Part shown: positions 9,699-19,425 of the stretch, one piece after another
How positions within the stretch are numbered: the first letter of the stretch is position 1
Layout: each line of letters opens with the position of its first letter
Assembly: GCA_031416415.1 (NCBI GenBank)
Contig: JANOTP010000283.1
Location: 1 to 37,496 of the forward strand
Direction: 5' to 3'
Source of the DNA: Cytophagales bacterium
GTDB lineage: Bacteria; Bacteroidota; Bacteroidia; Cytophagales; Cytophagaceae
Length of the DNA stretch: 37,496 nucleotides
Program-made: the position numbers and the translations under genes
The notes under the pieces: generated by a model
What the model was told of the DNA's origin: nothing
The model's database searches: none
The model's input: only the letters and a program-made list of their open reading frames with translations

Positions 9699-9757
9699 CA
9701 GTCTGGAGTGTGAGTATTGAGGTTTTATTCTCAATACTCACACTCCAGACTTTTTTT
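9699..9757 (+). terminator. terminator of the tRNA pair: perfect 22-bp inverted repeat (AGTCTGGAGTGTGAGTATTGAG / CTCAATACTCACACTCCAGACT), 8-nt loop, T7
   Basis: Seen directly in sequence; unusually long perfect stem. Confidence 0.75.
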
Positions 9758-9831: not shown

Positions 9832-10602
9832 TTAAGCCCAAACCTCCTGTATCGTTTCTCTAAACAACGCATTCAACTTTTGTGTCTCTGGGTGTGTATC
9901 TAAAATCCCAGATTTCAAATACAAAGCAAAATAATCTAATTGCTCTACAATGAATTTTTGTAGCGGTTCTATTCTTTTTTCCAAGCCTAATTCTTGTCCA
10001 GATTTCTTTTTGGCCAACAATACTTCAAGTTCTTGTAAAATAGATTTTTCTTTTACGAGTTCGTTAACTAAAATATCAAATTCCATTGGAGGAAAGGTTC
10101 CAAATTTTTCTATCCAAGCACAACATAAAAGCGGCCGAAGTACATAGAAATATTTTTTAATGCGCACCTCTTCGTTTTGCAAATAGTCTTTGTAATTGCC
10201 AGAAGCCATATGGAAATAATGGTTCAGACAAGCCTTTGGATTAAAATATTCTGTAGACAAAACCCGCAACTTTTCTGCTGTTTTATATTCTTCATGGTAT
10301 ACAATAGGACTGCGCAGCCATTCCATTAATGGAGGGTTGGATTTCCTAAACAACTTCAGCGCCTTTCGCAATTCCCAACCACTCAAGTCCAATTCGTTGG
10401 GCAACATTTCTTCCATAGAATCTTTCTGCTCATCAATAGACATATACCATTCAGGGCGCTGCACATAAATAAACCGAACATCCCAATCGCTGTTCACCGA
10501 TTCAAACCCCCAAGCACGACTGCCACTTTCAACTGCAAAAAGGATTTTTATATCTTTTCGGTTTTCGAGGTTTTTTAATTCTGATTGTATGTGGGTTTTC
10601 AT
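9832..10602 (-). CDS. Pol-beta superfamily nucleotidyltransferase (COG3541/PF10127-like predicted NTase), intact copy
   Basis: N-terminal GS..D.D motif: ILFAVESGSRAWGFESVNSDWDVRFIY; 256 aa. Confidence 0.75.
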   Translation of the reverse strand: MKTHIQSELKNLENRKDIKILFAVESGSRAWGFESVNSDWDVRFIYVQRPEWYMSIDEQKDSMEEMLPNELDLSGWELRKALKLFRKSNPPLMEWLRSPIVYHEEYKTAEKLRVLSTEYFNPKACLNHYFHMASGNYKDYLQNEEVRIKKYFYVLRPLLCCAWIEKFGTFPPMEFDILVNELVKEKSILQELEVLLAKKKSGQELGLEKRIEPLQKFIVEQLDYFALYLKSGILDTHPETQKLNALFRETIQEVWA

Positions 10603-10620
10603 TGTTTCGTTGTCAATAAA

Positions 10621-10850
10621 TTAATTTGTCTCGTCCTAAAATAAGTATTTCGCCCTTGTTGGTGCTTTTCACCAACAAGCTGTTTCTACGCAGCACTAAT
10701 GCCCTTTTCGTAAATGATTTTTTTTAATTTCGATGTTAATTTGTCTCGTCCTAAAATAAGTATTTCGCCCTTGTTGGTGCTTTTCACCAACAAGCTGTTT
10801 CTACGCAGCGCTAATGCCCTTTTCGTAAATGATTTTTTTTAATTTCGATG
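10621..10850. repeat. 115-bp direct tandem duplication (2 units) covering the flank plus the left end of the MITE-like element
   Basis: Units 10621-10735 and 10736-10850 are near-identical (ttaatttgtctcgtcctaaaataagtatttcgcccttgttggtgcttttcaccaacaagctgtttctacgcagc.ctaatgccc..). Confidence 0.85.
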
Positions 10851-10978
10851 TTAACCACGACCTACCTATTTTGTCAGAAAGAATAAGTTGAGTTTTATAA
10901 ATATTAAAAGCAAATAGATTGGTTACTTTGGAGTCACGAGCAACGCTTGTTGGTGAAAAGCACCAACAAGGGCGAAAA
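10764..10978. mobile_element. MITE-like ~215-bp element, copy 1; terminal inverted repeats are themselves hairpins (TTCGCCCTTGTTGGTGCTTTTCACCAACAAGC ... GCTTGTTGGTGAAAAGCACCAACAAGGGCGAA)
   Basis: Left and right ends are exact reverse complements; each end contains a 10-bp stem CTTGTTGGTG/CACCAACAAG; no ORF; second copy at 12918-13133. Confidence 0.6.
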
Positions 10979-10983
10979 TCGCT

Positions 10984-11259
10984 TTATAAATTATTATAGG
11001 TATTACTTTTAATTCTAAATGTAACTATTTGTTCTGCCCAAGAAATCTTTTCGGAAAAAGATTCATTTTCAAATTCAAAGTATTTTCTCTGAATTAGCTT
11101 TCCAATGTTTTCCGAAAGAATCCAATTTATGAGTTCTTTTGAATGCTCTGTCTTATCATAAAACCCTCTTATTTTATTCCTTTCAAAAAGCGCTATTTCT
11201 TCATTAACTATAAAGTTTGACAAATGTTTAATTGAAGCTTTAGATTCTGTAACCTCCAA
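10984..11259 (-). CDS. hypothetical small protein (91 aa)
   Basis: ORF only. Confidence 0.4.
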   Translation of the reverse strand: MEVTESKASIKHLSNFIVNEEIALFERNKIRGFYDKTEHSKELINWILSENIGKLIQRKYFEFENESFSEKISWAEQIVTFRIKSNTYNNL

Positions 11260-11729
11260 AGAATCAACAAATCATTAAATATAGGATAGAAATGAGCTAT
11301 TACTGCAAAATAATTCTGGAATTCGGATGCTGCTTTTTCACTTTCATCATATAACATACTTTCCCAAAGAACAATCATATATTCTTGAACCAGTTTTTGC
11401 TCCTCTTCCTTCCAATTTTTCCAACCTGCTAAGGAGAGTTTTTCAAATGCAATCCAAATTTCATAAGGACTTCTAAGTTCTGCTATAAGTTCGAATATTC
11501 TAGGCAAAAAATGTTTGTAATCCAATTCGTTGCCCCATGTCGTAATTGCTTTGCCTGTAAAACGCGATAAATCTTCGTCCGACAAATCTTTAAGTGATTT
11601 AGAAAACAATTCTTGATTCCATTTTTCCAAATCTCCATATAACGGACTTCCACTCATAGACAAATTACTATGATACTTTTCAAAGGTTTCATATAATTGA
11701 GCTATAATCTTTTCTATTTTGGAAGTCAT
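11208..11729 (-). CDS. hypothetical protein; probable start at MTSKIEKII (track ORF extends to 11768)
   Basis: ORF; the internal start removes the overlap with the upstream gene. Confidence 0.45.
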   Translation of the reverse strand: MTSKIEKIIAQLYETFEKYHSNLSMSGSPLYGDLEKWNQELFSKSLKDLSDEDLSRFTGKAITTWGNELDYKHFLPRIFELIAELRSPYEIWIAFEKLSLAGWKNWKEEEQKLVQEYMIVLWESMLYDESEKAASEFQNYFAVIAHFYPIFNDLLILWRLQNLKLQLNICQTL

Positions 11730-11752
11730 TATTAATATTGTATTGATATAGT

Positions 11753-12214
11753 TTAGGAAGGCAACCAACCTAATTCAAATTCTTTGATATAATTTTTTAG
11801 TTCTTCAACTCTGTTTATCCCATCTAAATCCATGCAAATTATTTTTAGGTTACCATGGTCTGCTGTCTCTGGTAAACAAGTTGCAAAAAAGCATTGCCAA
11901 AAAGTATCGGCTAATTTTTCATCATTGTGCCAAGTGGTCATTACTTCAATTTCATTATGATTTTCCATTGTCTCCATAACTACAATATTTTCGTCAAAAA
12001 GGTCATGAAGTTTTTCTCCGAATTGTCCGTGTCCTTTAAATTCTAAAATGTTTCTTGAAATTGATGTTCTTACAAACTTGTCAAACCTATTTGAATCAGG
12101 TTTATCGTTAGCAATTGCAAGACAAACCCAGTCATTATCGGGAAGTTCGTCCTCAAAGTTATTATAGTCTAACCAAAAAACCATTCTGTTAAAATATTTT
12201 CCTATTGGTATCAT
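11753..12214 (-). CDS. hypothetical protein (153 aa), acidic, immunity-protein-like size
   Basis: ORF only. Confidence 0.5.
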   Translation of the reverse strand: MIPIGKYFNRMVFWLDYNNFEDELPDNDWVCLAIANDKPDSNRFDKFVRTSISRNILEFKGHGQFGEKLHDLFDENIVVMETMENHNEIEVMTTWHNDEKLADTFWQCFFATCLPETADHGNLKIICMDLDGINRVEELKNYIKEFELGWLPS

Positions 12215-12466
12215 AATCTTCTTTTAAAATGCTACAATAAGGTTTAGAGCATTGCGTTCGGATGGGTTTCAAAGCAAAAATTGATAATAAGCGTTAAACT
12301 TGAATATAGAGATATAAGTTTACAAACAATCCCACCTGAAACAAAACCCGTGTTTTGTTCAGTTATTTTTTCCCTCTGACTCTTTAATTTTTTCAATTAT
12401 ATCAAGCCATGTAAGATTCTTTTCTAGAAATTTACCATATTCATCTAATAGAACTAATAATTTTAT

Positions 12467-12826
12467 TCAAATAAAGGTCAATCCATATCCAAGTTTCCAT
12501 ATTACTAATTGATCATTTACATATGGATCATTCCAAAGTGTTTTTAGTTTTTCTTGAATAATGCTTTCTTTCATTTCGTCAATTCCTTCAGCTAGTTTAA
12601 CTGTATCTCTCATTTGAATTTCTTTCATTTTATAAAGGTTTTCTCTAGCAAGTTTATCAATGATTATTGTAAAATTCTCCTCAAAATCTATAATTGCCTC
12701 AAGCTGTTCTTTTATATGTTCGATTTCGAATGGTTCTGATGTATGTGCTGCAATATTCCTTAATTTCCTATTAACGTTGAGTGCGCTATAAAATTTCGAG
12801 TCAATAAGTCGAAATGCATAAAGCAA
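12467..12826 (-). CDS. hypothetical protein (119 aa)
   Basis: ORF only. Confidence 0.45.
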   Translation of the reverse strand: MLYAFRLIDSKFYSALNVNRKLRNIAAHTSEPFEIEHIKEQLEAIIDFEENFTIIIDKLARENLYKMKEIQMRDTVKLAEGIDEMKESIIQEKLKTLWNDPYVNDQLVIWKLGYGLTFI

Positions 12827-12917
12827 TTCTATCTTACTTGATAGAGAACTTAATGTTCCTGGATAATCTAATAATTTGTTTTTATATCTTTTAGACTCAT
12901 CAGGTAGAATTAATTAT

Positions 12918-13133
12918 TTCGCACTTGTTGGTGCTTTTCACCAACAAGCTGTGTCTACGCAGCGCTAATGCCCTTTTCGTAAATGATTTTTTCTAATTTC
13001 GATTTTAACCACGACCTACCATTTTTGTCAGAAAGAATAAGTTGAGTTTTATAAATGTTGAAAGCGATTAGATTGGTTACTTTGAAGTAACGAGCAACGC
13101 TTGTTGGTGAAAAGCACCAACAAGGGCGAAAAA
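12918..13133. mobile_element. MITE-like element, copy 2 (one mismatch in the left TIR: GCAC instead of GCCC)
   Basis: ~90% identical to copy 1 across its full length, including both hairpin TIRs. Confidence 0.6.
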
Positions 13134-13136
13134 ACC

Positions 13137-13230
13137 CCCAAGCTCGGCTCCCACTTTCTACAGCATAAAGAATTTTTATATCTTTGCGGTTTTCGAGGTT
13201 TTTTAATTCTGATTGTATATGGGCTTTCAT
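13137..13230 (-). pseudogene. truncated 5' fragment (~31 codons) of a second copy of the nucleotidyltransferase gene, abutting the MITE-like element
   Basis: 13141-13233 is ~85% identical to 10508-10602 (MKAHIQSELKNLENRKDIKILYAVESGSRAWGF vs MKTHIQSELKNLENRKDIKILFAVESGSRAWGF). Homology stops exactly at the element's right end, and the 91-aa track ORF simply reads on into the repeat. Confidence 0.6.
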
Positions 13231-13349
13231 CGTTTCATATTAAATAATTAAAACCGTCTTTATACAAACCTCCAAGGTTTTGAAAACCTTGGAAGTTTCG
13301 TTGTTAACGATTCCAGCATGTCAGTTGAAAACAGCATCCAAGGAGCGAG

Positions 13350-14024
13350 CTAATAGCTAATTTTTAGAAGTTTGTCATTAACAATATATTTAATTTCGCC
13401 TGTTCCAATAATTCTAGAACCTTCTCTAAACTCAAACTCCATTCCTTCTTTCAAGCAACCCGCAAAATAGTCTGGTGATAACATTTTTATTTTTGCCTCA
13501 ACAGTGTCACCAGAGAAAACGGTTTCTTTACCAATAAAAGTTTGCTGGCCGGATGTCTGCATTTCCGTAAAATCAAACTTTAATTGTGGTCTGTATCCAT
13601 TGATTGCTGGTGTTTTTCTTCCCCCTTGTTCTGTTGTCAAGTATTGCAGTTTTGCAATAAAGTCAACCATTTTAAACTCTTCATTATAATAGCTCATAAC
13701 GCTATCAATTATTTTATCGAAGTCTGCTTGGTTACAAAATCTTATTGACGTGTCTAGAAGTTCCATTATTGAACTTCCCGCTTCTAATTGCCATGCGTTT
13801 TGTCCATTAAATTTTTTAGCATCAATTTTTTCAATTGTTAATGGCGTGCCAAAATATTCCTTTAGTTCTCTTATAAAATCTAGAATTTCTATTTGGTTAA
13901 AAGTTGGCCAATCATTCATTGCATCCAAAAACAGCGTTGCAATTTCTTTTAACTTATGTTCTTTAGTATCAATTTCAACTAACGTCCTTAGTGTCGAATT
14001 TGTTATGATATTATTACTGTCCAT
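13350..14024 (-). CDS. fusion protein: unknown N-terminal domain + C-terminal EF-Tu domain-3-like beta-barrel
   Basis: C-terminus KLQYLTTEQGGRKTPAINGYRPQLKFDFTEMQTSG...SGDTVEAKIKML..EFEFREGSRIIGTGEI aligns motif-for-motif with EF-Tu domain 3 (VYVLSKEEGGRHTPFFxGYRPQFYFRTTDVTG...PGDNxxMxVxLI..RFAIREGGRTVGAGVV). Confidence 0.65.
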   Translation of the reverse strand: MDSNNIITNSTLRTLVEIDTKEHKLKEIATLFLDAMNDWPTFNQIEILDFIRELKEYFGTPLTIEKIDAKKFNGQNAWQLEAGSSIMELLDTSIRFCNQADFDKIIDSVMSYYNEEFKMVDFIAKLQYLTTEQGGRKTPAINGYRPQLKFDFTEMQTSGQQTFIGKETVFSGDTVEAKIKMLSPDYFAGCLKEGMEFEFREGSRIIGTGEIKYIVNDKLLKISY

Positions 14025-14127
14025 TGTCTATGCCTCCTGATTATATTTGTATATGAGGAACTTATCAATCATCCCCTTCTTTGGTCTTTGGCGCCCGAAC
14101 TTTAGGTATTAGCCAGAAAAAGGACTA

Positions 14128-14487
14128 TTACGAAAGACCCTTCTGCGACGAAAGAATTGCTATAATGTGCTCAAGAAGATGAATGAATGTCGATTTTTCA
14201 AATAAGTTATTTAATCTGTCAGAAACAATGGTCTTCTCAACTACATTATTAAGTTTCCTAATAGCTCCCTCCAAATCCTCCACCAATTTAGTCCTGTCTA
14301 AATCCTTGCTTGCTGTTATAATGTCGATTGGCTCAAATGAAAAAGCCCCTATGCCGCAGCATTCCGCCATGCAAGATACTTCGAGTTTACCGAGGAAGTC
14401 GAAAGAAGTATTCAAAAGAACATCAACATCGAATAAATTTTTATCCGATGTATCCGGTTCTATCCATATAAAATTGTATTGTTCCAT
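14128..14487 (-). CDS. hypothetical protein (119 aa) with a CMAECCGIG Cys cluster
   Basis: ORF only. Confidence 0.45.
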   Translation of the reverse strand: MEQYNFIWIEPDTSDKNLFDVDVLLNTSFDFLGKLEVSCMAECCGIGAFSFEPIDIITASKDLDRTKLVEDLEGAIRKLNNVVEKTIVSDRLNNLFEKSTFIHLLEHIIAILSSQKGLS

Positions 14488-14612
14488 AGTTTCATTTTAT
14501 AAATAGTATTTTCAATCAAAATTGTAATCAAGCAATTTTTCAAAACCCTAGTATACCCTCTAACTATTTTACCTCCATAAGCGTAGTTTTTCCTATCAAA
14601 AACCACCTAATT

Positions 14613-14646
14613 AAACCACCAAGGCTTTTAATACCCTTGGTGGTTT
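14613..14646 (-). terminator. hairpin AAACCACCAAGG-N10-CCTTGGTGGTTT downstream of rtcB (probable terminator; a related copy lies at 13272-13292)
   Basis: Perfect 12-bp stem 19 nt after the rtcB stop; T5 follows ~11 nt later on the minus strand. Confidence 0.5.
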
Positions 14647-14664
14647 AATTTATCTACGAAGAAC

Positions 14665-16089
14665 CTAATCCTCCCTACTCCCATCATCGGCCATTCTTAC
14701 CATCTTCGGAATAAATTTCGCTACTACTTCGACCAAATCCGTTTGGGCTGCCATCACGGTATGGATATCTTTGTAGGCTCTTGGGGCTTCGTCTAGGCCG
14801 CCTCCAATAAGCGTTACGCCATGATCTTTCAATACCGATTTCATTTCTTCTGAGGTAATTGTTTTCTCGGCCATCGTTCTGCTCATTTGTCTCCCTGCAC
14901 CGTGCGAGGCGGAGTTCAAGGCATTTTCAACACCTTTTCCTCTTACTAGAAATCCTGGAGCAGTCATAGAACCTGGAATAATTCCCATCACGCCTTTGGC
15001 TGCTGGGGTTGCTCCTTTTCTATGAACAATCACTTCTTCGCCAAGATAGAGTTCTTTCCAAGCAAAATTATGATGGTTCTCCACTTTCGCCAATACTTGC
15101 GCACCAATTGCTTTCGTAAGTTTTTCGTGAATCACTTGATGACAAGCCGAAGCATATTCTCCTGCCAAATTCATGGCCATCCAATATTCCATTCCCTCTG
15201 CACTGTTCAAATCCATATAAGCCAATTGAGCCGCTTCTCTTGGGAGTGGACAAAGTTGTTTTGCCAATTTTGTATAATGCCCTGCGATCATAGCACCCAT
15301 TCCTCTAGAGCCCGAGTGTGTCAGCAAGGCCAAATATTTTCCTTTCGGAATATTCAATTCGACATCCGCTTTTTCTAATTCTATAATCCCCCATTCCACA
15401 AAGTGATTTCCTCCACCTGAAGAACCCAATTGCGAATAGGCTTTATCCTTCAAGGCTTTCACCATTGGATTGATTTTGAACACTTCATTTTCCAACACTT
15501 CATGATCTGCTTTGTATTGTCCATGAAACCCATGACCCGCACCAAATTTTGTATGGGCAATCAATTCTCTTTTATACTTACTTTCATTTTCAAGAAAATG
15601 ATCTGCAGAGATATCGTAGATGGACAAACACATTCTGCAACCGATATCAACACCCACACCATAAGGAATAATCGCATTTCTTGTGGCCAACACGCCACCA
15701 ATTGGAAGTCCATATCCTTGGTGCGCATCGGGCATCAAAGCTCCTGCCACTGAAACAGGCAGGCGAACGGCCATGTTCATTTGTTTTAATGCACCTTCTT
15801 CAATAAAGTCTGCTCCGTAAATTTTATAGGGTGCTGGCTCCTCTTTCAATTCAATTATTTTTTCTATTGTTCTTTCTGCTATCAGCGCTTCCGCTAAATT
15901 TTTCAATTGTGCGTTTTCTAAATAACCTTCTGGAGCCTCCACTACTTTTGACAAGATGCTTAGAATTTCTTCCTTGGAATTTTCATTACCCAATTCTACC
16001 GAGGCCTCCAAAGCTATTGCCATCACTGACGTTTGTGGGTATCCAAGTGAAATAAGTTCTGTTCCTGATATGGTTATTGTATTCATCAT
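14665..16089 (-). CDS. rtcB: RtcB family RNA 3'-phosphate/2',3'-cyclic phosphate ligase (tRNA-splicing ligase family), ~85-aa N-terminal extension
   Basis: ..LMPDAHQGYGLPIGGVLAT..GVGVDIGCRMC.. and the remaining RtcB His/Cys metal-site blocks (..NHHNF..); 474 aa. Confidence 0.9.
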   Translation of the reverse strand: MMNTITISGTELISLGYPQTSVMAIALEASVELGNENSKEEILSILSKVVEAPEGYLENAQLKNLAEALIAERTIEKIIELKEEPAPYKIYGADFIEEGALKQMNMAVRLPVSVAGALMPDAHQGYGLPIGGVLATRNAIIPYGVGVDIGCRMCLSIYDISADHFLENESKYKRELIAHTKFGAGHGFHGQYKADHEVLENEVFKINPMVKALKDKAYSQLGSSGGGNHFVEWGIIELEKADVELNIPKGKYLALLTHSGSRGMGAMIAGHYTKLAKQLCPLPREAAQLAYMDLNSAEGMEYWMAMNLAGEYASACHQVIHEKLTKAIGAQVLAKVENHHNFAWKELYLGEEVIVHRKGATPAAKGVMGIIPGSMTAPGFLVRGKGVENALNSASHGAGRQMSRTMAEKTITSEEMKSVLKDHGVTLIGGGLDEAPRAYKDIHTVMAAQTDLVEVVAKFIPKMVRMADDGSRED

Positions 16090-16142
16090 TTCGTTTTTAA
16101 ATTTACTTAAATTTTTAATCTAAGACTTTCTTTTTGCACTAA

Positions 16143-16200
16143 ATACTCAGGGCTAACTACTAACCCTCAGTAACCCCGATGGGATTCGAACCCATATTTC
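16143..16200 (-). ncRNA. candidate structured RNA element just upstream of rtcB: canonical tRNA T-arm (ATGGG-TTCGAAT-CCCAT) + acceptor-like CGGGGTT + 7-bp hairpin CTGAGGG-N11-CCCTCAG
   Basis: Exact T-loop consensus GTTCGAATC on the rtcB strand; cannot be folded into a full cloverleaf; GC-elevated ORF-free stretch 16090-16461. Confidence 0.3.
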
Positions 16201-16382
16201 TGCTGAAGCAGACAGCGGGCTGTAAATACGCTTCCCTACTTTTGTTTCCAATTTCGGTGCAACTGTAAACTTTGCTCGTTAGTCCGCGCAGGTCTAACGA
16301 GATAATCCACGCACTCCACGGTTCCGATTTTACCGCAGCTTTTCCTTTTAAGCTACAGGGTCAATTGTTGTCGTTTTAACAC

Positions 16383-16461: not shown

Positions 16462-17565
16462 TTACTTCTTCTCAGGTACAAACAATTGTTTCAATTGCTC
16501 CACCACTTGAGAGTTTCCTCCCAATGAAATACTGTTGATTTTTTCCGCGATTTTCTCTACGTACTCCATCTCTTTCAATTTGAACAGCATTGCGTTATCT
16601 TCCATCAATTTTGCAGTGTTCAGCAAACTTCTGGTCGAAGCAGTTTCCTCTCTTCGCATGATGGTATTGGCTTGCGCTTTTTTCTCGGCTACCAACACTT
16701 GGTTCATAATTTCTTTCACATCGCCTGGCAATATGATGTCTTTTATCCCGCAAGCACTCAACGCAACACCCATTCCCTCCGCTTTTTCTTTTACCGCTTC
16801 CAAAATAATTGGCGCTACCGATTCTTTTCGGTCCAACAATTCATCGAGCGTCAACGAGCCAATGACGGCACGAATAGAAAGCTGAATAAGGGTATACAAT
16901 TGTTTCTCATAGTCCTTATTTTCAAGCAATGCTTTTTCAATATCCGAAACTTTGTATTGTGCATGGAAATTTAATCGTATCGCTGCTTTGTCTTTTGTAA
17001 GCAATTCTTGTCCAGAAATTTCCATGGACACCAATCGTGTATCGGCTTTCAACACCGTCATCACAACTGGATTTTTCCAGAAATAATACACCCCAGGACC
17101 AAGCATTCGTTCGAATTTTCCTTCTACAAATAACAAACCTTTCTCATAAGACTCTACCACATAAACGCGCACGTAGTTTAGAATTTCTTTTCTTACCAAC
17201 GTAAGTTTATCAATCGCTTCAGTAATTTCTGGTTTGCTAATATCGGCGATTACGAATTCGTGTTTAATCACACCGTTCCAAAACGCATAGCGTCCAGCAG
17301 TAAGCACATTTTTGAAAACACCGTTTTCATAATGCAAGGCAAGTTCGTTGTCTTTCACTTCAACTGAATTCAATAAGGCTGCTAATGCTTCGTCTTTCAA
17401 GAGAATACCAAGGTCAAAAGGAGCTTGGAAGGCTTTTGTCATATCGTATTCCAAAACAGATTCGTTTGGTAGCACCCAAAAAACTCCGTTGGTAATTACT
17501 CTATTATAAGCACCATTTTTAACTACTAATCCTACTGTGTAGGCATTCACTCTTTTACGTAACAT
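16462..17565 (-). CDS. SPFH/band-7 (stomatin/prohibitin-like) domain protein
   Basis: 367 aa; band-7-like core with a C-terminal coiled region ..KEIMNQVLVAEKKAQANTIMRREETA.. Confidence 0.65.
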   Translation of the reverse strand: MLRKRVNAYTVGLVVKNGAYNRVITNGVFWVLPNESVLEYDMTKAFQAPFDLGILLKDEALAALLNSVEVKDNELALHYENGVFKNVLTAGRYAFWNGVIKHEFVIADISKPEITEAIDKLTLVRKEILNYVRVYVVESYEKGLLFVEGKFERMLGPGVYYFWKNPVVMTVLKADTRLVSMEISGQELLTKDKAAIRLNFHAQYKVSDIEKALLENKDYEKQLYTLIQLSIRAVIGSLTLDELLDRKESVAPIILEAVKEKAEGMGVALSACGIKDIILPGDVKEIMNQVLVAEKKAQANTIMRREETASTRSLLNTAKLMEDNAMLFKLKEMEYVEKIAEKINSISLGGNSQVVEQLKQLFVPEKK

Positions 17566-18414: not shown

Positions 18415-19425
18415 ATGCCGATAAATAAACAAGCGCTCATTCGTTACAAAGTCATTGACCAATGTTTACAAAACCGACAACGCAAATGGTCTTTGGAAGA
18501 TCTAGTGGAAGCCTGCTCTGAAGCGCTCTATGAATTTGAGGGTATAAAGAAAGGAGTAAGTTTACGCACCGTGCAACTAGATATACAAACCATGCGCAGT
18601 GAAAAGCTTGGCTACAATGCTCCGATTATAGTAGTAGAGAAAAAATATTATTCTTACGAAGACAAAAATTACAGCATTTCAAAAATTCCACTCTCCAAAC
18701 AAGACTTAGGAATGCTTACAGAAGTGGTAGGACTTTTGAAACAATTGAAAGGACTAAATTATTTTGAAGAAATGAGTGGCATGATTGCCAAGTTGGAAGA
18801 CAAAGTAATAACACAAAAAACTCAAGGCCGATCAACGATTGATTTTGAAAAAAACGAATTGTTGAAAGGGCTTGAGTTTATAGATCCTTTGCACAAAGCC
18901 ATTTTAAATGAAACGACCGTTCAAATTACCTATCAATCCTTCAAAGCACGCAACGCATCTGATGTTATTTTTTACCCCTATCTATTAAAGGAATACAGAA
19001 ATCGATGGTTTGTTTTTGGGATGACTAGAAGGGGCAAAGCCTTACAAAACCTTGCCCTCGACCGTATCGTGGAAGTGCACGAATTGCCAAACATAACGCC
19101 AGACCCACCAACTGCAGAGATTGAAAATTATTATGCAGACGTTATAGGCGTTACCAAATCACTGGGTCAAAAAGCTTCTACGGTGGTGTTGAGTGTAGAC
19201 AAAGCTACTATTCCTTATGTTCTAACAAAACCACTTCATGCTTCGCAAACCATTTTAAAAGAACCAACCGAAGAAGGGCATACATTGATAAGTATAAATG
19301 TTGTTTTAAACTTTGAATTGGAAAGGGAGATTTTGGGTTTTGGAGAAAAGGTAAAAGTTTTAGCGCCTAGGATTTTAGTGAAGAGTATTAAGAAACGGTT
19401 GGAAGAGGCGGTTGGAAAGTATTAG
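18415..19425 (+). CDS. WYL-domain transcriptional regulator (HTH-WYL-WCX architecture)
   Basis: N-terminal HTH (ALIRYKVIDQCLQN); central WYL signature FYPYLLKEYRNRWFVFG; 336 aa, typical length. Confidence 0.75.
   Translation: MPINKQALIRYKVIDQCLQNRQRKWSLEDLVEACSEALYEFEGIKKGVSLRTVQLDIQTMRSEKLGYNAPIIVVEKKYYSYEDKNYSISKIPLSKQDLGMLTEVVGLLKQLKGLNYFEEMSGMIAKLEDKVITQKTQGRSTIDFEKNELLKGLEFIDPLHKAILNETTVQITYQSFKARNASDVIFYPYLLKEYRNRWFVFGMTRRGKALQNLALDRIVEVHELPNITPDPPTAEIENYYADVIGVTKSLGQKASTVVLSVDKATIPYVLTKPLHASQTILKEPTEEGHTLISINVVLNFELEREILGFGEKVKVLAPRILVKSIKKRLEEAVGKY

Follow-up and report, generated by a model that had tools for sequence, protein, structure and literature searches.

A putative inverted REP doublet of a Bacteroidota-wide, RAYT-associated hairpin family within an RNA-repair operon of a Cytophagales bacterium

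A non-coding repeat of 215 nt, present twice in the 37.5-kb window (the whole stretch of DNA that was analysed, 37,496 nucleotides of a contig of a Cytophagales bacterium), is very probably an inverted doublet of REP sequences resembling a REPIN or BIME. The REP family to which it would belong is spread across the Bacteroidota and is the cognate repeat of a lineage of RAYT (TnpA_REP) proteins. This identification follows from RAYT loci of other genomes that are bracketed by the same hairpins, together with the entry of a Runella REP in the literature. Judging by protein motifs, protein length and this Runella entry, the best fit for the RAYT lineage appears to be subclass 2.6 as defined by Quentin et al. 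(2018), which equals group 5. The doublet appears to have the layout of a RAYT locus ('REPtron') in which a non-coding spacer of 149 nt takes the place of the gene, with the feet of the REPs directed outwards as they are around RAYT genes. The first-pass annotation of this DNA had described the element as MITE-like and had proposed a non-autonomous transposon or a REP-like recombination element among its possible identities; these two proposals agree well with ends that are REP hairpins of the RAYT family, arranged as in a RAYT locus without the gene.

Architecture of the element

Both copies have a length of 215 nt and run from TTTCGCCC to GGGCGAAA. The size of about 215 bp given at first is thereby retained, while the limits given with it (10764-10978 and 12918-13133) are corrected to start and end one base earlier. 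Copy 1 (10763-10977) consists of a left REP (10763-10795), a spacer of 149 nt (10796-10944) and a right REP (10945-10977); copy 2 (12917-13131) has its left REP at 12917-12949, with one mismatch, and its right REP at 13099-13131. Neither copy is assigned to a strand. A repeat search and alignment showed the copies to be 94% identical without gaps (13 mismatches), and this similarity ends at the outer feet, the flanks being unrelated on both sides.

Each terminus is an inverted repeat of 33 nt that holds a hairpin. The ends had been described as exact reverse complements, each containing a perfect stem of 10 bp, and this was found to be correct: complementarity is 100% over the 33 nt in copy 1, and in copy 2 the left arm has a single change (TTTCGCAC). 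The hairpin itself is 25 nt long, CTTGTTGGTG-CTTTT-CACCAACAAG, with a perfect 10-bp stem and a 5-nt loop. It occurs five times in the 37.5-kb window, against 0.00 occurrences expected from 100 shuffles, and all five lie within 10655-13124. A complete REP comprises this stem and loop together with an unpaired, conserved 5' foot, formed by a run of pyrimidines followed by CGCC. The left REP of copy 1, with its GCC foot and T-rich loop, is in '+' orientation and the right REP is inverted.

No ORF of note was present inside the element in the ORF list, and it thus lacks coding capacity, as was originally stated. Reading of the sequence flanking both copies (ataagta before and atcgc after copy 1; ttaatta before and aaaccc after copy 2) likewise upheld the remark that no clear target-site duplication is visible, none being present at either copy.

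Folding of the element as single-stranded DNA or as RNA gave z values of -8.5 and -9.4 relative to shuffled sequences. Only the two termini pair, the 149-nt spacer being neither strongly structured nor self-complementary; the strong z values arise because the two ends pair with each other, and this pairing is the sole source of the signal. The first-pass annotation had also offered a small structured RNA gene as an explanation. Such a gene, or a terminator or insulator module whose function would lie in the RNA and not in DNA mobility, could account for the folding values and for plus-strand hairpins that a consensus scan found to be weakly terminator-like (the terminator and promoter scans were otherwise uninformative), and it has a precedent in the REPs of E. 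coli, which are known to influence mRNA stability and termination (PMC3733652). It is nevertheless a very improbable identity for the element, as the fold signal comes entirely from end-to-end pairing, the spacer is not conserved between genomes, and the hairpins are not followed by a T-run on the minus strand, which carries the neighbouring genes. Moreover, no Rfam family was matched: the only hit in 10400-13400 was Hammerhead_HH9, at a chance-level 19.8 bits against a gathering score of 52, and a search with the whole window returned two tRNAs only. The proposal of an RNA gene is without support, given the missing Rfam match and the unconserved spacer; a secondary side effect of the doublets on the mRNA of the operon is possible.

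The hairpin family and its RAYT gene in other genomes

When one genome per species was scanned with the stem fixed (CTTGTTGGTG-N5-CACCAACAAG) and the loop free, the number of eight-kb blocks containing the stem pattern was at least 118, and these blocks belonged to about 71 assemblies. The hosts of the matches listed belong to the Cytophagales, Chitinophagales, Sphingobacteriales and Flavobacteriales. From these matches, 257 hairpins were oriented by loop composition and yielded the consensus yyyCGCC, CTTGTTGGTG, TTCTT, CACCAACAAG. The GCC foot, which was absent from the query, is unpaired and is kept in 92-95% of these 257 hairpins, with pyrimidines before it; it differs from the canonical 5' GT[AG]G foot and from CGTC. 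Changes at the outermost pair of the stem are compensatory among the matches listed (C-G 203, T-A 24, G-C 9, A-T 5, other 16), and the position next outward is unpaired. The hairpins of the matches listed are located mostly outside genes, 28% of them falling within stop-free frames of 120 codons or more, versus 81% of random 25-mers.

The hairpin is multi-copy in other genomes, for example that of Chryseolinea serpens (at least eight blocks). Within a genome the sequence on the inner (3') side is common to the copies and the sequence beyond the foot differs, which places the boundary of the element at the foot. Gene-less '+-' doublets with a spacing of approximately 100-190 bp are the commonest arrangement among the matches listed (29 cases). 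Their spacers are common to the copies within one genome, with differing flanks, and are specific to each genome. Runs of several '+' hairpins are also common, including runs that adjoin RAYT genes (L005, L101 and L123). At L056:4237-6370, eight REPs of the same orientation follow one another with a period of approximately 283-350 bp and with both flanks conserved; arrays of same-orientation REPs were also seen in L069, L116, L027, L085 and L096, and other loci have spacings of 32-170 bp. Tandem amplification of units composed of a REP and its flank seems to be a habit of this hairpin family, like the 115-bp duplication of the window described below.

An identical 25-mer with a TTCTT loop recurs in about 71 species genomes of four orders among the matches listed (L001-L118), a breadth that is a lower bound and a uniformity that is partly due to locus selection, since the stem was fixed in the query. 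Despite this identical 25-mer, pairwise identity among the bracketed RAYTs amounts to only 25-65%. As REPs are usually species-specific, the conservation (or horizontal spread) of one 25-mer is unusual, and the presence of one exact REP hairpin across four orders of the Bacteroidota raises the rather remote possibility of a host-level function of the RAYT-REP system rather than selfish spread. That a GCC-footed hairpin is conserved so broadly, in at least about 71 species genomes, is notable in itself. REP hairpins were also encountered in MAGs labelled as other phyla, namely Bifidobacterium (L001 and L026) and Acidobacteria (L040). These may be due to mis-binning, and the hairpin of L040, which is without the GCC foot, may possibly be a chance match.

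The variant of the window, with a CTTTT loop, had no further instance among the species-genome matches listed or in a metagenome scan with the 25-mer of the window. A second metagenome scan, in which the foot was included and the loop left free, recovered 20 loci of the general hairpin family, and the spacer of the window was present in none of these 20. No matches to the stem pattern were obtained in 2.9 million viral contigs, and the 215-bp element had no match among phage or plasmid records.

All-against-all clustering of 1364 ORFs from 118 of the loci listed identified as the most recurrent family, present in 14 loci, HUH/Y1 proteins of approximately 170-180 aa with the motifs NH(F/I/L)H and YIHxNP; this is the only gene family that recurs beside the hairpin among the matches listed. 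Nine of twelve tested members passed the 80-bit cut-off of the NCBIfam model for the REP-associated tyrosine transposase (NF047646) with 82-93 bits, the remaining three scoring 62-77 bits. Matches to Pfam Y1_Tnp were weak (17-28 bits) and those to the NCBIfam IS200 model remained below 20 bits (cut-off 55). A profile of the family aligned with TnpA_REP of E. coli (PDB accession no. 4ER8, E = 6e-7) over a region spanning the HuH and Y motifs.

Among the genome and metagenome loci listed, thirteen RAYT segments have a '+' hairpin to their left and a '-' hairpin to their right, each no more than 400 bp away, and this bracketing is independent of the strand of the RAYT gene. The remaining segments are mostly cut by the ends of their loci and have the expected hairpin on the surviving side. 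The element of the window has the same bracketed layout, with 149 nt replacing the RAYT gene. The closest case is a metagenome contig of 34% G+C (L136) with a RAYT located between TTTCGCCCTTGTTGGTG and CACCAACAAGGGCGAAA: its ends are TTTCGCCCTTGTTGGTG-TTTTT-CACCAACAAG and an inverted copy finishing in GGGCGAAA, so that feet (TTTCGCC and GGCGAAA ends) and stems are identical to those of the window and the loop alone differs. In a further locus (L097:4969-5365), 372 bp separate a REP(+) from a REP(-), and all that is left of a RAYT between them is an N-terminal relic of 59 aa. This locus is a deletion intermediate, standing between the complete RAYT locus and the empty doublet. The series from the full RAYT locus with identical ends (L136) through the truncated intermediate (L097) to the gene-less doublet is worth keeping. 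A cognate transposase with matching ends, as called for in the first-pass annotation, was found in other genomes (the 13 bracketed segments, L136 in particular) and not in the window, where tblastn with nine RAYTs gave only noise (E of 0.29 or higher).

We infer that the doublet could be mobilised in trans by a RAYT from what is described for TnpA_REP of E. coli, S. maltophilia and Marinomonas (PMC8266576). A RAYT whose gene lies in another part of the source genome would bind the hairpins on single-stranded DNA and would cut next to the foot, and the doublet would then be copied or moved without target-site duplication. The cognate enzyme being a single-strand transposase of the HUH/Y1 type and not a DDE transposase, the missing target-site duplication is expected.

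The same observations bear on two other origins by transposition. In a classical MITE, a deletion derivative of a DDE insertion sequence, the 33-bp terminal inverted repeats would be the binding sites of the transposase. The small size of the element, its long and perfect terminal inverted repeats and its lack of coding capacity all suit this description, but target-site duplications are absent, each 'repeat' is a hairpin whose single-stranded foot is conserved and whose stem shows compensatory changes, and the only recurrent bracketed gene is the HUH/Y1 RAYT, with no DDE transposase recurring next to the hairpins in the 138 loci listed. A MITE in this DDE sense is highly improbable. Still less credible is a palindrome-associated transposable element (PATE) derived from an insertion sequence of the IS200/IS605 group with a class 1 TnpA. 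Although hairpin ends, the absence of a target duplication and an enzyme family of the HUH type are common to both, the left and right subterminal hairpins of IS200/IS605 elements differ and are on the same strand, whereas the ends of the window element are exact inverted copies; the associated proteins, furthermore, score far higher with the RAYT model (62-93 bits) than with Y1_Tnp or IS200. The inverted REP doublet of a RAYT lineage is kept as the very probable identity of the element.

Duplication and rearrangement within the RNA-repair operon

The contig, which the window covers from end to end, is chromosomal DNA of the Bacteroidota and encodes AspRS, ferrochelatase, MscL, YebC and proteins with a Por_Secre_tail domain. 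It carries an RNA-repair operon on the minus strand, comprising genes for a Band_7 protein (16462-17565), RtcB (14665-16089), a DUF6331 protein (14128-14487), an EFTu_D3-like protein (13350-14024) and, beyond the doublet region, RlaP (9832-10602), after which tRNA-Leu and tRNA-Gly are located on the plus strand. The gene of a WYL regulator (18415-19425) is divergent from the operon. Between the doublets lies a minus-strand segment of 1.9 kb (10978-12916) with small ORFs: one for a DUF7684 protein (11753-12214), probably frameshifted ORFs at 10984-11768 and one at 12467-12826. No transposase is encoded in this segment, and PADLOC and Pfam gave nothing further on its ORFs.

In relatives (L141), RlaP is located directly after RtcB. 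Compared with L141, the window has approximately 4 kb of extra genes between the two (13350-14487 and 10978-12916), encoding the DUF6331 and EFTu_D3-like proteins, the apparently frameshifted ORFs and the DUF7684 protein, which is 80% identical to longer homologues of 232 aa. The UniRef name of such a 232-aa homologue (P0132) begins with 'Barstar (barnase inhibitor) d...', a hint that genes of an immunity type may be accumulating within the RNA-repair operon. When the genes between the doublets were tested for usual flanking by REPs, no REP hairpins were identified near the homologues of the DUF7684 ORF in L144-L146. Two palindromes that are unrelated in sequence to the REP were also observed, a perfect one with 22-bp arms directly after tRNA-Leu (9700-9751) and one with 16-bp arms after the EFTu_D3-like gene (13266-13298); both are probably terminators.

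Copy 1 is preceded by an extra tandem unit (10621-10735, no strand assigned), consisting of 28 nt of left flank, a left REP (10648-10680) and 55 nt of spacer, so that the order of the cluster is REP(+) REP(+) REP(-). The tandem duplication of 115 bp reported initially (10621-10735 and 10736-10850) was recovered by Tandem Repeats Finder, with a period of 115, 2.0 copies and 99% matches over 10621-10854. Its junction is a TTAA microhomology, at which the extra left half would have been produced by a later tandem duplication.

Copy 2 is adjoined by a relic of the 5' end of RlaP (13132-13259, minus strand), composed of 29 nt of upstream sequence and codons 1-33, and this relic breaks off exactly where the doublet ends on its outer side. 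The corresponding 5' segment of the intact gene (10504-10631, minus strand) is 84% identical to the relic. Over the 99 coding nucleotides the two differ by eight synonymous and two non-synonymous changes; as these differences are mostly synonymous, the relic derives from a diverged, once functional allele. A contig of a related strain (L143), the RlaP of which is 93% identical, is uninterrupted across the breakpoint, and its upstream region resembles that of the relic (13231-13269) and not that of the intact gene. The position of the break at the doublet and the continuity of L143 indicate that the block 10632-13131 is an insertion or a replacement with REP doublets at its borders. On this reading of the sequence, the two doublets appear to border a rearranged block of approximately 2.5 kb that interrupts an older allele of RlaP, and the duplicated 5' end of RlaP may have come about by allelic replacement, by Campbell-type integration or by another route. 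That a doublet ends to the base at the breakpoint of a truncated gene is of help in annotating rearrangements and contig breaks in MAGs of the Bacteroidota.

An assembly chimera was considered as the origin of the junction between relic and REP and was set aside as the main explanation, since chimeric joins arise within shared k-mers and this junction is without homology. Exact look-ups with proteins of the window yielded no record for RlaP, and those with RtcB and the EFTu_D3-like protein pointed solely to a 3.2-kb contig from an independent short-read assembly of the same organism (L119; Logan SRR20217189). This contig is identical to 13189-16348 and ends inside the RlaP relic, where long exact words match the 5' end of the intact gene; repeats at this locus thus fragment assemblies.

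It may be asked whether the block that starts with the first REP(+) (10648) and finishes with the last REP(-) (13131), approximately 2.5 kb with DUF7684-type and other small genes, entered codon 33 of RlaP as a single unit bounded by REPs. This is unlikely; if true, it would mean that passenger genes enclosed by inverted REPs, in the position in which the RAYT gene itself sits, can be mobilised by enzymes of the RAYT type.

Another explanation of the locus is that the repeats are purely local products, the two copies and the partial third having been generated by segmental or tandem duplication when the rearrangement broke up RlaP, and that the element lacks mobility in this genome or has lost it. 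All five hairpins of the 37.5-kb contig lie within 2.5 kb, for which local duplication alone could account; the 115-bp tandem duplication and the 128-bp duplicated 5' end of RlaP are evidence of local duplication and recombination at this very locus, and no RAYT is present within the window. The similarity of the copies, however, stops at the ends of the 215-bp unit, beyond which the flanks are unrelated, and the copies differ from each other by 6%, compared with 1% for the tandem units. With the hairpin family dispersed across many genomes and tied to RAYT genes, a purely local origin is considered unlikely. It concerns activity in the source genome and leaves the identity of the element as a REP doublet unchanged.

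Comparison with known systems

The hairpin and its class of transposase are already present in the literature, and a single locus matters little; the set of loci serves instead as a worked example for a poorly described RAYT subclass of the Bacteroidota. Subclass 2.6 of TnpA_REP corresponds to group 5 of Bertels et al. (2017), occurs mostly in Bacteroidetes and is characterised by the motifs NH[LIV]H, WQ and YIH[QN]NP and a median length of 179 aa (Quentin et al. 2018, BMC Genomics 19:475, PMC6006769). The REPs of this subclass are without GT[AG]G according to the same authors, and the GCC foot therefore fits subclass 2.6 and not the canonical definition of a REP. It has been described by Bertels et al. 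(2017) that 16-mers flanking group 5 RAYTs occur approximately 31 times per replicon. Folded single-stranded REPs are cleaved and rejoined in vitro by three TnpA_REP enzymes (Corneloup et al. 2021, PMC8266576), those of E. coli, S. maltophilia and Marinomonas, which belong to subclasses other than 2.6. The present loci offer a defined pair of substrate and enzyme for the question of how, in the absence of a GTAG guide motif, a RAYT recognises its REP and cuts it.

The closest known relative is the REP of Runella slithyformis, GCCGTTGTTGGTGTTATCACCAACAACC, which is listed for the subclass 2.6 protein AEI49282.1 in Additional file 2 of Quentin et al. (2018, PMC6006769). A full-text search of the literature for the hairpin sequence returned no paper, the sequence being present only in this supplementary table. 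The Runella REP and those of the window have in common the GCC foot, a stem of TTGTTGGTG and CACCAACAA, a short T-rich loop, the absence of a GT[AG]G foot and a host belonging to the Bacteroidota. The likeness extends to the REPtron of subclass 2.6, as the same hairpins flank, in inverted orientation, a RAYT of approximately 170-180 aa in other genomes. They differ in that no RAYT lies between the hairpins of the window, in the outermost pair (C-G in the window and G-C in Runella) and in the loop (CTTTT, 5 nt, versus TTAT). In that publication the hairpin is given for one genome and the structures of subclass 2.6 are termed 'atypical'; gene-less doublets and the breadth of distribution of the hairpin are not described in it (PMC6006769).

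Classical bacterial MITEs such as Correia elements and Nezha resemble the window element in size, in terminal inverted repeats and in the absence of coding capacity, but they have target-site duplications and originate from DDE transposons, whereas the window element has neither feature. The BIMEs of E. coli are similar in that their REPs, alternating or repeated in orientation, form extragenic clusters which often lie between the genes of an operon and are prone to local duplication. Their REP and foot are unrelated to those described here, their palindromes are imperfect and contain a bulge, and their linkers are short defined motifs.

REPINs (Bertels and Rainey 2011, PLoS Genet 7:e1002132) are likewise made up of two inverted REPs in a doublet that is conserved as a unit; they too are non-autonomous, with mobilisation in trans by a single-copy RAYT presumed. 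Those described to date belong to group 2 and 3 RAYTs of the Gammaproteobacteria and possess GTAG-type feet and shorter spacers, the whole forming one long hairpin, whereas the doublet of the window has a 149-nt spacer without self-pairing and would be paired with RAYTs of the NHxH / YIHxNP type, which fit subclass 2.6 (group 5).
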